Source: Escherichia phage ECO95 1-6-1 | Strand: one strand, 5' to 3' | Length of the DNA stretch: 2,081 nucleotides | Sequence record: OR845563.1 | The notes under the pieces: generated by a model | Seen by the model: only the letters and a program-made list of their open reading frames with translations | Databases searched by the model: none | What the model was told of the DNA's origin: nothing | Position numbers and translations under genes: made by a program | In this document: positions 877 to 1,977 of the stretch, in pieces | Numbering within the stretch: position 1 is the stretch's first letter | How the letters are laid out: the number at the start of each line of letters is the position of its first letter

Positions 877-907
877 GGCAGCTCTGCAAAGCTGCCTTTG
901 TTTTATT
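877..907 (+). terminator. Rho-independent terminator, plus-strand oriented: GGCAGC-TCTGCAAA-GCTGCC stem-loop then TTTGTTTTATT
   Basis: 6-bp GC-rich stem (877..882 / 891..896), 8-nt loop, then a U-rich tract 897..907 on the plus strand. On the minus strand the stem is not followed by a U tract, so it is oriented to terminate rightward (RHH) transcripts. It sits between the convergent RHH and antirepressor genes; the antirepressor stop is at 905..903. Confidence 0.55.
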
Positions 908-1682
908 CAGCGTCAGCATTCGGCACCTCCGGCAATACACCACCAGCGATCAGTCTTTTCGTTAACCACTGCTCACCCTTCCCCGTCAGCATCGTTGTGA
1001 ATGAGGCTCTTACCTCGCCATTCGTTTCATACGTTCCCTGGCGAACGGCAAAATAACCGCTATCGATATAACGCTGCATAGGCAGGTTGTGGCGCTGGCC
1101 ACCATTGATGAGAATCCCCTGTTGCCTCATCCAGCCGAATAATTTGATGGGGCCAAGCCCTACGGCTTTGGCATAGTTTGGAATGGAAATCCCCTTACTG
1201 ATCTCCGCCACGCGATCAGCGAAATCAACTTTTGGCGCAGCGGCCACCAGCCGGTTTTCAAGTTCGCTTGCCTTTTCGGCCAGATCAGCAGCAAGGCGCA
1301 GGGCTTCCGGTAACGTCTGGGGGATATTAGCGGCGGCTTTTGCCTGGCGTTCGCAGTTGATGAAGTAGCGGCGCACCTCCCGCCCTTTTTCGTTGCGCTC
1401 AACCATTGCCAGCTCTTTACCCATGTCGATGGTGATCAGGTAATCATGTGCAATTTGTTGGCGATATTTTGCGCTCCCCGAAACGGGGGCGCTCAAATTT
1501 TCAACCACCGTAAAATCTACACCAGCAGTAAAACCATACTGGCTGATACGCCCCTTAATCCATGTGGTGAAATCACGCCCAACGCCGAGAAACTCATGGA
1601 GTTTTTTTGCACTGACCAGCGATACCGTCACGCCGCCAATATTTCCGGGGTTAACCGGAACCAACTCATTTAATTTTTGCAT
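903..1682 (-). CDS. Phage antirepressor, N-terminal AntA/AntB-type domain plus C-terminal KilAC-type domain (259 aa)
   Basis: ATG at 1682..1680 with a purine-rich SD (AAGGGGGG) upstream, starting 10 nt after the alpA stop; stop TAA 905..903. N-terminal segment [36 protein letters not shown]...[43 protein letters not shown] matches my recollection of the AntA antirepressor domain. C-terminal segment [24 protein letters not shown]...[17 protein letters not shown] matches the KilAC pattern. The 39-codon extension to 1799 in the ORF track overlaps alpA and lacks an RBS. Confidence 0.85.
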
Positions 1683-1692
1683 AGCGCCCCCC

Positions 1693-1977
1693 TTACGCGG
1701 ATTTACGGTTGTAAGGGGTGTTGACGTTCTCAACAGCAGGTGGATTGCGAACCCACCAAAGAACATCTGACAGAAGCCATGCGCAACTATTACGGCCAAA
1801 GTGGCAGCGTGGCGGGAATTTACCTTCGTTCTCCATATACCAGCGGGTGGAACGGGAAAGGCTGGTTATTTCGAAGCATTCACTTTCACGAATACGGCGA
1901 TCAAACTTAATGCCATATTCTGCGAGAATGGTGCGGCGTTGTTCTGGTGTTGGCGGGGTAAAACGAGTATTTGACAT
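1693..1977 (-). CDS. alpA: AlpA/Vis-family phage transcriptional regulator / excisionase-like helix-turn-helix protein (94 aa)
   Basis: ATG at 1977..1975 preceded by SD GGAGGAAG; stop TAA 1695..1693. Translation contains DRRIRESECFEITSLSRSTRWYMENEGKFPPRCHFGRNSCAWLLSDVLWWV, which fits the AlpA-family consensus (L-S-R-S-T ... G-K-F-P ... W ... S-D/E-V/I ... W-V/I). The symbol denotes family membership, not orthology to E. coli K-12 alpA. The upstream MLSGGS extension in the ORF track lacks an RBS. Confidence 0.85.
   Translation of the reverse strand: MSNTRFTPPTPEQRRTILAEYGIKFDRRIRESECFEITSLSRSTRWYMENEGKFPPRCHFGRNSCAWLLSDVLWWVRNPPAVENVNTPYNRKSA

Follow-up and report, generated by a model that had tools for sequence, protein, structure and literature searches.

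The 2,081-nucleotide (nt) stretch of DNA analysed here, taken from the record of Escherichia phage ECO95 1-6-1 (OR845563.1) and referred to as the window throughout, carries alpA, which encodes an AlpA-family regulator, followed on the same strand by ant, which encodes a protein of the antirepressor type. The window is, almost beyond doubt, the junction between the integration zone and the 'Bro zone', together with the start of the replication zone, of an Enterobacteriaceae capsid-forming phage-inducible chromosomal island (cf-PICI) of about 15.8 kb that is integrated at the 3' end of fis. Judging from gene anatomy and from related islands, alpA and ant probably constitute one bicistronic early unit. 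The overall explanation that we find best, at somewhat less than even odds, is a cf-PICI early unit in which Ant would act in trans as a pro-lytic factor. As to what Ant would do in particular, our leading guess is that it derepresses helper or co-resident prophages, a reading to which we assign a probability of roughly 0.35. The features on which the argument is built are as follows.

1693-1977, minus strand: alpA, AlpA-family regulator/excisionase of 94 residues (PF05930, E=2.3e-10; PHROG 2790, E=5e-43)
903-1682, minus strand: ant, Bro-network protein of 259 residues (Pfam domains below; PHROG 63 'anti-repressor Ant', E=6e-77)
1392-1616, minus strand: AntA domain of Ant, residues 23-97 (PF08346, E=1e-23)
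951-1256, minus strand: ANT/KilAC domain of Ant, residues 143-244 (PF03374, E=7e-26)
1683-1692, minus strand: alpA-ant spacer GGGGGGCGCT, 10 nt, with the Shine-Dalgarno (SD) sequence of ant (read from the sequence)
1980-2039, minus strand: alpA leader hairpin, with CCUCC paired to the alpA SD GGAGG (folding and covariation)

The island was identified from its chromosomal counterpart. Window bases 96-2081 are 98% identical to a locus of the E. coli ET670 chromosome (L001), in which the island lies between fis and yhdJ and all of its 23 open reading frames (ORFs) are accounted for by RefSeq annotation and PHROG matches. They are arranged in the following order.

First part: integrase, DUF6387, alpA, ant, a gene for a ribbon-helix-helix (RHH) protein on the opposite strand, icd-like gene, four small ORFs
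Middle part: DUF927 primase, small ORF (111 residues), ORF of 170 residues on the opposite strand
Late part: HK97-type major capsid protein, prohead protease, portal, head closure, connector, ORF of 50 residues, HNH, small (TerS, P27 family) and large (TerL) terminase subunits, ORF of 63 residues

The attachment block TACGGCATGAACT is present at both ends of the L001 island, about 15.8 kb apart, and is the published attachment identity block of the 'fis PICIs' (PMC10111431). The DUF927 primase matches PHROG 1139 'DNA primase' (E=6e-185), and the nine ORFs that carry no functional name, DUF6387 and eight hypotheticals, match only PHROGs of unknown function. RefSeq lists the HK97 capsid, protease, portal, connectors, HNH, TerS and TerL both in L001 and in a second locus, L003, where one gene at the end is annotated 'tail assembly protein'. 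Within the part of L001 bounded by the attachment repeats at fis and yhdJ, annotation and PHROG matches revealed neither tail nor lysis nor CI/Cro genes, and no P4-like sid, delta, psu, epsilon or alpha genes. At E<=1 Rfam gave no match in the window and no C4/isrK immunity RNA in the L001 island, where its matches were limited to the int-alpA RNA motif, located beyond the window, and two at chance level. The integrase, alpA, the primase, an own capsid and terminase module, the lack of tail, lysis and CI/Cro genes and the fis block at both ends thus identify the element as a cf-PICI. The original prediction had considered a satellite or PICI-like island as a condition and had proposed to decide the matter from the flanking genes, with a complete prophage and its CI/Cro immunity region as the other outcome. 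The L001 flanks settle it in favour of a capsid-forming PICI, with integrase, primase and an own capsid/terminase module, and hold no such immunity region. By analogy with other cf-PICIs, the island would be induced by helper phages through alpA and be transferred in its own small capsids with borrowed tails.

Both alpA and ant are real genes and not chance ORFs. The first analysis had placed and described them correctly, and Pfam and PHROG support both on the minus strand. The match of AlpA to Phage_AlpA (PF05930) scores 40.6 bits against a cut-off of 21, PHROG 2790 is the family 'excisionase and transcriptional regulator' and RefSeq names the L001 copy 'AlpA family transcriptional regulator'. 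For ant, the case is made by recurrence: at 57-100% identity, Ant is again found in this position in 30 contigs of IMG/VR and in the genomes of 4-5 species of GTDB. Exactly 10 nt separate the alpA stop codon (TAA, 1693-1695) from the ant ATG (1680-1682), the G-run of GGGGGGCGCT is the SD of ant and a scan of the minus strand between the two genes found no terminator; the short gap, the separate SD and the lack of an intervening terminator had all been predicted, and from this anatomy we infer, on sound grounds, that alpA and ant are co-transcribed. In relatives the spacer has the same build (TAA or TAG stop, 5-7 G, CGCT-ATG) and is 8-11 nt long. The ant SD is able to pair with CCCCUUAC at the 3' end of alpA, with a fold no better than that of shuffled sequences (z=-0.44); such pairing would couple translation of ant to translation of alpA. 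A sigma-70 scan of the window gave one weak site on the plus strand against 1.8 expected by chance, and we claim no promoter.

The length of the G-run (1687-1692) varies from 5 to 7 G among otherwise near-identical islands. This is either a real length change, which would tune Ant translation, or homopolymer sequencing error.

The leader of alpA folds into a hairpin with a minimum free energy of -25.8 kcal/mol (z=-4.47), and none of 200 shuffled sequences folded as well. Among 13 distinct leaders 94% of cells are paired, with compensatory changes in 4 of the 18 pairs; the covariation score was reached by none of 500 shuffles, and slid controls pair in only 30-48% of cells. The shorter leader type of other islands also sequesters the alpA SD, with a C-G to U-A swap. 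The hairpin, which is absent from Rfam, may gate translation of the whole alpA-ant unit, or it may block read-through from int. In PICIs studied so far, helper phages, and not SOS itself, turn alpA on, AlpA activates its own promoter and the downstream genes, and overexpression of AlpA alone is enough to induce EcCICFT073 (PMC6092414); alpA is required in EcCIEDL933 (bioRxiv 10.1101/2022.09.08.507074). For the present island we propose a sequence of events along the same lines. The conserved leader hairpin would lock the ribosome-binding site of alpA. A helper phage would turn alpA on, and AlpA would then activate itself and the genes downstream, as has been shown for EcCICFT073 and EcCIEDL933. 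Ant would be made only when AlpA is made, given that the G-run site lies 8-11 nt behind the alpA stop, and so would be produced at the very start of the island cycle. The alpA-ant transcript may also continue across the RHH gene in antisense orientation and enter the icd-primase-capsid operon; read-through past ant is possible because the hairpin downstream of it terminates the plus strand only.

877-896: hairpin between the convergent ant and RHH genes, terminator for the plus strand only (-16.7 kcal/mol, z=-3.7)

On the plus strand the stem of this hairpin is followed by UUUGUUUU, and on the minus strand by AAUGUCAC, without a U tract.

Searches of genome and virus collections place Ant in this kind of element. 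In GTDB, with one genome per species, full-length relatives of Ant (57-100% identity) were found in Pluralibacter, Rahnella, Kosakonia and Kluyvera, and Pantoea has a partial one; cf-PICI capsid genes are present in four of these loci, and the Rahnella contig (5.3 kb) shows the alpA-ant-icd part only. In IMG/VR all 30 loci with an Ant of at least 57% identity contain Ant, an RHH gene on the opposite strand, Icd, primase, capsid, portal and TerS (major capsid protein, portal and TerS being found by tblastn in 30 of 30), on contigs mostly of 14-19 kb; those with a 100%-identical Ant are of 14-19 kb as well. Matches of 45-61% identity in the same database span the KilAC half only and are without any PICI marker, and many of them are P1-like, with Ant1 and KilA in tandem.

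We also surveyed the gene position that follows alpA, called the slot here, in 80 IMG/VR loci whose AlpA is 79-100% identical to that of the window, 79 of which were evaluable for the slot. Nearly all of the 80 loci show the order int, (DUF6387), alpA, slot gene, RHH gene (opposite strand), icd, primase and capsid. The slot is filled in 75 of the 79, by ORFs of mostly 196-278 residues (range 174-441) that usually start 8-20 nt after the alpA stop, about 100-140 nt after it in about ten loci and further away in a few. The slot proteins belong to at least 12 unrelated clusters.

AntA+KilAC, as in the window: 19 loci
AntA with another C-terminus, two clusters: 15 and 3 loci
Further clusters: Bro-N; Rha+KilAC; ORF6N; several without a family match

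An N-terminal domain of the KilA-N superfamily (AntA, Bro-N, Rha or ORF6N) is significant in 45 of the 75 slot proteins, and 13 more have a weak Rha match only; the C-terminal domains differ, KilAC being present in 21. The same Ant (91-100% identity) has RHH neighbours from four clusters (in 11, 3, 4 and 1 loci), and several slot clusters occur next to each cluster of RHH proteins. This free reassortment of Ant and RHH alleles indicates that Ant is not matched to the island's own RHH regulator. The general layout was known before: Williams and colleagues described a 'Bro zone' between the integration and replication zones of Gram-negative PICIs (PMC10111431), to which the window Ant belongs by its AntA and ANT domains, and a survey of 2026 records 'AntA/AntB antirepressor, YlcI/YnfO, Icd' in the accessory gene set of cf-PICIs from E. 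cloacae (PMC13612085). The pairing of the two genes, to which the original prediction had drawn attention, is consequently not special to this element but an instance of the described alpA to Bro-zone layout. What our analysis adds is the SD-sequestering alpA leader, the 8-11 nt spacing in this lineage and the RHH gene with its allele-specific palindromes.

Unrelated slot proteins (in loci L119, L124, L131, L138, L139, L141, L166 and others) share an N-terminal leader, MKKINALxGQGFAHPEASQ. Over the first ~60 nt these genes are 72% identical at the nucleotide level (66% at third codon positions), against 32% further in, and their leader contains a small stem, TGCCC/GGGCA, which in some is swapped to CTGCC/GGCAG. 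The window Ant has lost most of the leader (MQKLNELV). The shared stretch may serve to anchor recombination, or it may act as an element in cis.

The relatives of Ant point in more than one direction. Residues 82-253 are 48% identical to P1 Ant1/Ant2 (E=2e-49); according to the annotation of the P1 record, these proteins antagonise C1 by forming a complex, Ant1/Ant2/C1. With the C-terminus of P1 KilA, which kills the host, this stretch shares 52% identity. A search for the AntA domain found none in P1 Ant1. The label 'antirepressor', used in the first description of the gene, derives from KilAC only, and this domain is equally near to P1 KilA. Residues 5-245 are colinear with gp42 of Listeria phage A118 (33% identity, E=2e-41), and a protein of Streptococcus phage Javan553, which has been named as a carrier of an AriS homologue (PMC9043618), matches at 36% identity. 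AriS and A118 gp42 are AntA+KilAC proteins that, when overexpressed, block SOS-dependent induction through KilAC; through AntA they modulate the lytic genes of their own phage, and AriS at native level favours lytic growth (PMC9043618). E. coli cells become filamentous through the action of the KilAC domain of phi11 Gp07 (PMC5944126). In an AlphaFold2 model of Ant (predicted local distance difference test score 78), an alpha/beta domain at the N-terminus is followed by a long helix (124-159) and by a helix-helix-hairpin domain at the C-terminus. The model matches folds of the DNA-binding type, and AntA is predicted to adopt a KilA-N/APSES-like fold of this type. A sequence search of solved structures with Ant gave nothing usable (best E=0.04, designed repeat proteins).

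If Ant is a derepressor, it would bind and neutralise the repressor of a resident prophage, as P1 Ant1/2 does with C1. It would reinforce derepression of the inducing helper, as the Ant of Phi24B does during induction, and it would cross-induce co-resident prophages, giving access to the tails and lysis functions that the island lacks. A role as a pro-lytic early factor is suggested because every characterised relative, at native level, pushes its phage towards lytic growth. Further points speak for derepression. P4 epsilon (Ash), proven to derepress its helper, is a Bro-network member of the same zone (PMC10111431, PMC13612085). Derepression can still be accelerated by an antirepressor that is made during induction, as with the Phi24B protein (PMC3064807). 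Some cf-PICIs appear to need one inducing phage and another as a source of tails (bioRxiv 10.1101/2025.02.11.637232), and the same Ant occurs with four RHH clusters, so that it is not matched to the island's own regulator. Several observations weigh on the other side. We identified no target repressor for Ant; its KilAC domain is just as close to that of P1 KilA, which kills the host, and phi11 Gp07 induces filaments through its KilAC domain (PMC5944126). AriS and gp42, the only proteins of the same architecture that have been studied, are no antirepressors and on overexpression inhibit SOS-dependent induction (PMC9043618), and with KilAC in only 21 of the 75 slot proteins the common job of the slot may not be antirepression. 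Moreover, the helper turns alpA on in the PICIs that have been studied (PMC6092414), so that Ant would appear after the helper has become lytic and would not be the primary trigger there, and derepressing that helper would be partly redundant.

A wider proposal, which we regard as possible but doubtful, is that Ant, encoded by the satellite and made together with AlpA, would cross-induce co-resident prophages in trans, including those that do not induce the island, and that the slot would be a library of helper-manipulating devices matched to repressor families. If so, a cf-PICI could recruit tails and lysis functions from a second phage in the same cell. This would matter since cf-PICIs spread between genera by means of borrowed tails, and some seem to need an inducer and a tail donor that are separate phages. 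The gene after alpA is one of the variable regions between the cf-PICIs compared, the others being cargo sites and tail adaptor/connector genes; if Ant or its slot-mates decide which resident prophages wake and which stay silent, this would help to explain helper range and the efficiency of transfer between species.

Ant might also be a dual regulator of the AriS kind, and this too is possible but doubtful. Its KilAC domain would damp the host SOS response, probably through RecA, and keep SOS-inducible prophages quiet, and AntA would tune lytic genes of the island or the helper; the net effect on other prophages would then be the opposite of the helper-prophage induction that the original prediction had in mind. 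Ant has the two-domain architecture and the length (259 residues) of AriS, aligns from end to end with the experimentally tested A118 gp42 (PMC9043618; residues 5-245, as above) and matches the protein of Javan553, the named carrier of an AriS homologue, at 36% identity. However, the tested proteins come from Firmicutes and are only 33% identical, and the P1 proteins are nearer relatives of the KilAC domain of Ant (48-52%). Only overexpression produced the SOS effect, native AriS having promoted the lytic cycle of its own phage (PMC9043618), and a satellite that depends on prophage tails and lysis would gain little by silencing its sources. A DNA-binding role would agree with the matches of the model to DNA-binding folds and with its long central helix. 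In such a case Ant would resemble CapR of the phage-inducible chromosomal island-like element (PLE), a sequence-specific regulator, and would act on helper late genes (capsid, packaging, tail) or on island promoters instead of on a repressor protein. The KilA-N-superfamily domain in 45 of the 75 slot proteins (and the weak Rha match in 13), joined to differing C-termini, is consistent with this, as is the lowering of phage gene transcription by the AntA domain of AriS (PMC9043618). We nevertheless consider it unlikely, as no binding site for Ant was identified and EcCIEDL933 does not interfere with its helper (bioRxiv 10.1101/2022.09.08.507074), though the slot gene of that island is a different one. 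Were either of these two alternatives correct, 'antirepressor' would be a misleading label for a very large protein family. Less likely again is an inhibitor of host growth or division like P1 KilA or phi11 Gp07, which together with the Icd-like protein would arrest the cell during the island cycle. The 52% identity to the C-terminal domain of KilA, the filamentation of E. coli caused by the KilAC domain of Gp07 (PMC5944126), the icd-like gene nearby and the location of P4 eta/Kil at the same position after an alpA homologue (PMC10111431) would fit, but KilA itself has no known molecular target, toxicity on overexpression is common and non-specific, and the variability of the slot would be left unexplained.

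The remaining alternatives depend on the region beyond ant, which contains the following features.

585-779, plus strand: RHH protein of 64 residues (weak RHH_5, HicB and Arc Pfam matches; PHROG 228 'Arc-like repressor', E=4e-8)
542-584: palindrome GTGTGTACCTATT-N17-AATAGGTACGCAC, abutting the RHH start codon in the divergent region between the RHH gene and icd (repeat search)
182-451, minus strand: icd-like gene, 89 residues, first of the replication/packaging operon (RefSeq 'host cell division inhibitor Icd-like'; PHROG 1743, E=1e-41)
97-189, minus strand: 5' part of a small ORF that overlaps the icd stop (ATGCGTAA) and is cut by an artefact (read from the sequence)

An RHH homologue was found at the corresponding position in 77 of 80 related loci, and alleles related to that of the window are annotated as the YlcI/YnfO family. 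The palindrome exists in a single copy within the island and was not found upstream of alpA or ant. Each allele of the RHH beta-strand is paired with its own palindrome at the RHH/icd site, for example GTGCGTACCTATT/AATAGGTAC. Because RHH alleles and palindromes co-vary, the RHH protein is a candidate operator-specific repressor of the replication/packaging operon, with the palindrome at 542-584 as its candidate operator. P1 Icd and the Icd-like protein share 27% identity (E=3e-6), and the truncated ORF at 97-189 corresponds to a hypothetical gene of 62 residues in L001 (19906-20094).

With an RHH protein that looks like an operator-specific regulator, and with ant and the RHH gene adjacent, convergent and both present in most related islands, Ant could be imagined to bind the RHH protein and thereby open the icd-primase-capsid operon. 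We think this very improbable: an Ant of 91-100% identity is found with four RHH clusters and each RHH cluster with several slot clusters, islands L130, L133, L181 and L185 have an RHH gene but no slot gene, and AlpA overexpression is sufficient for induction of EcCICFT073 (PMC6092414). Finally, the Arc-like RHH gene and the icd-like gene nearby recall the immI regions of complete prophages, in the style of P22 arc-ant-mnt or P1 c4-icd-ant, but an ordinary antirepressor of a resident prophage is as good as excluded by the context. The element measures 15.8 kb and lacks genes for tails, lysis and CI/Cro, ant does not have its own promoter, neither alpA nor ant is preceded by the RHH palindrome, icd belongs to a separate unit further downstream, and Rfam gave no C4 or other RNA for the window and no RNA of the C4 type for the island. 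A P22 immI-type module was accordingly rejected, with ant starting 10 nt after alpA, the palindrome lying only between the RHH gene and icd, and the RHH alleles reassorting relative to Ant.

The derepression reading and its alternatives can be set against known systems. Gram-negative PICIs with a Bro zone (PMC10111431) have the same order of int, alpA, Bro-network gene (ANT, AntA, Bro-N, Rha or ORF6N), primase and late genes, and the fis site and identity block also match. Nothing essential differs; the lineage of the window has the RHH gene and allele-specific palindromes in place of the C4/isrK-type immunity RNA of some PICIs. The cf-PICI prototype EcCIEDL933 (bioRxiv 10.1101/2022.09.08.507074) shares int, alpA, the icd-like gene, DUF927 primase, HK97 capsid, protease, portal, connectors, HNH, TerS (P27) and TerL and likewise has no tails, whereas in an island of this type from O157:H7 (L024) the slot protein has 247 residues and no family match, there is no RHH gene and the capsid modules of the two island types are only ~77% identical at the DNA level. 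The accessory gene set of the E. cloacae cf-PICIs (PMC13612085) matches that of the window's island. With P1 immI (c4 RNA-icd-ant1/ant2, then kilA) the island has in common KilAC (48% to Ant1, 52% to KilA) and an Icd homologue (27%); unlike P1, where icd precedes ant and is coupled to it in translation, it has no C4 RNA, its ant precedes icd in another unit, and P1 Ant1 has no AntA domain. We infer by analogy that ant is controlled by AlpA and not by an antisense RNA as in P1. The Listeria proteins AriS and A118 gp42 (PMC9043618) have the same AntA+KilAC build and ~260 residues and are encoded in an early lytic operon behind a small helix-turn-helix regulator, but they are 33% identical to Ant and belong to Gram-positive temperate phages, and the SOS inhibition shown for them is opposite in sign to antirepression. 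In P4, the AlpA homologue Vis is followed by the translationally coupled Bro-network gene eta, and epsilon derepresses the P2 helper (PMC10111431; PMC13612085). The original prediction had likened alpA-ant to P4 Vis and epsilon. This comparison stands in that epsilon (Ash) is part of the same 'Bro network' of PICIs, but the positional counterpart is vis-eta and not vis-epsilon (PMC10111431), and no sequence family common to Ant and P4 epsilon was detected. In contrast to P4, the island has no sid, delta, psu or CI RNA and makes its own capsids.

Other sequence records bear on the window itself. Two short contigs named 'Salmonella phage S.Kent 1-2-1' (OR851044.1 and OR851456.1) are 100% identical to the window and both end at about its base 1315; their deposition as phage sequence is an indirect hint that the island may be induced and transferred as other cf-PICIs are. 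The record 'Klebsiella phage P12620-1' (PQ569648.1, 106 kb) holds an identical ant gene within a cf-PICI. It was considered as a helper with its satellite and dropped, since its features are labelled 'hypothetical protein' only and flanking chromosome is apparently included; the record looks like a mislabelled chromosomal stretch. Bases 1-95 of the window are non-biological: a poly-C run is followed at 52-83 by the adapter-like GTCTCGTGGGCTCGGAGATGTGTATtAGAGAC, presumably a near-perfect Illumina Nextera/P7 adapter, and genome matches begin at base 96.

Some further elements were seen in and around the window. A hairpin with a U-run at 482-523 (plus strand), just upstream of the RHH promoter region, is strongly terminator-like (-22.6 kcal/mol, z=-3.6); it would stop plus-strand transcripts antisense to icd, and on the minus strand it would be a stem in the 5' untranslated region of the icd operon. 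A perfect 11-nt inverted repeat, GCTGAATAAAA (775-785) and TTTTATTCAGC (901-911), overlaps the stop codons of the RHH gene and ant and flanks a 115-nt spacer; it may mark a module junction or be due to chance. Between int and the DUF6387 gene, on the minus strand of L001 at 22808-22874, is the int-alpA RNA motif of the island (RF02996, 57.6 bits, E=6e-10). Lastly, an island at the hpt/gcd site of E. coli EC09 (L002) is of the capsid-less classical PICI type with PerC. Its slot gene is a different AntA type and its RHH gene also differs, and the block from icd to primase is 92-100% identical to that of the cf-PICI at the protein level, which shows that classical PICIs and cf-PICIs exchange modules.

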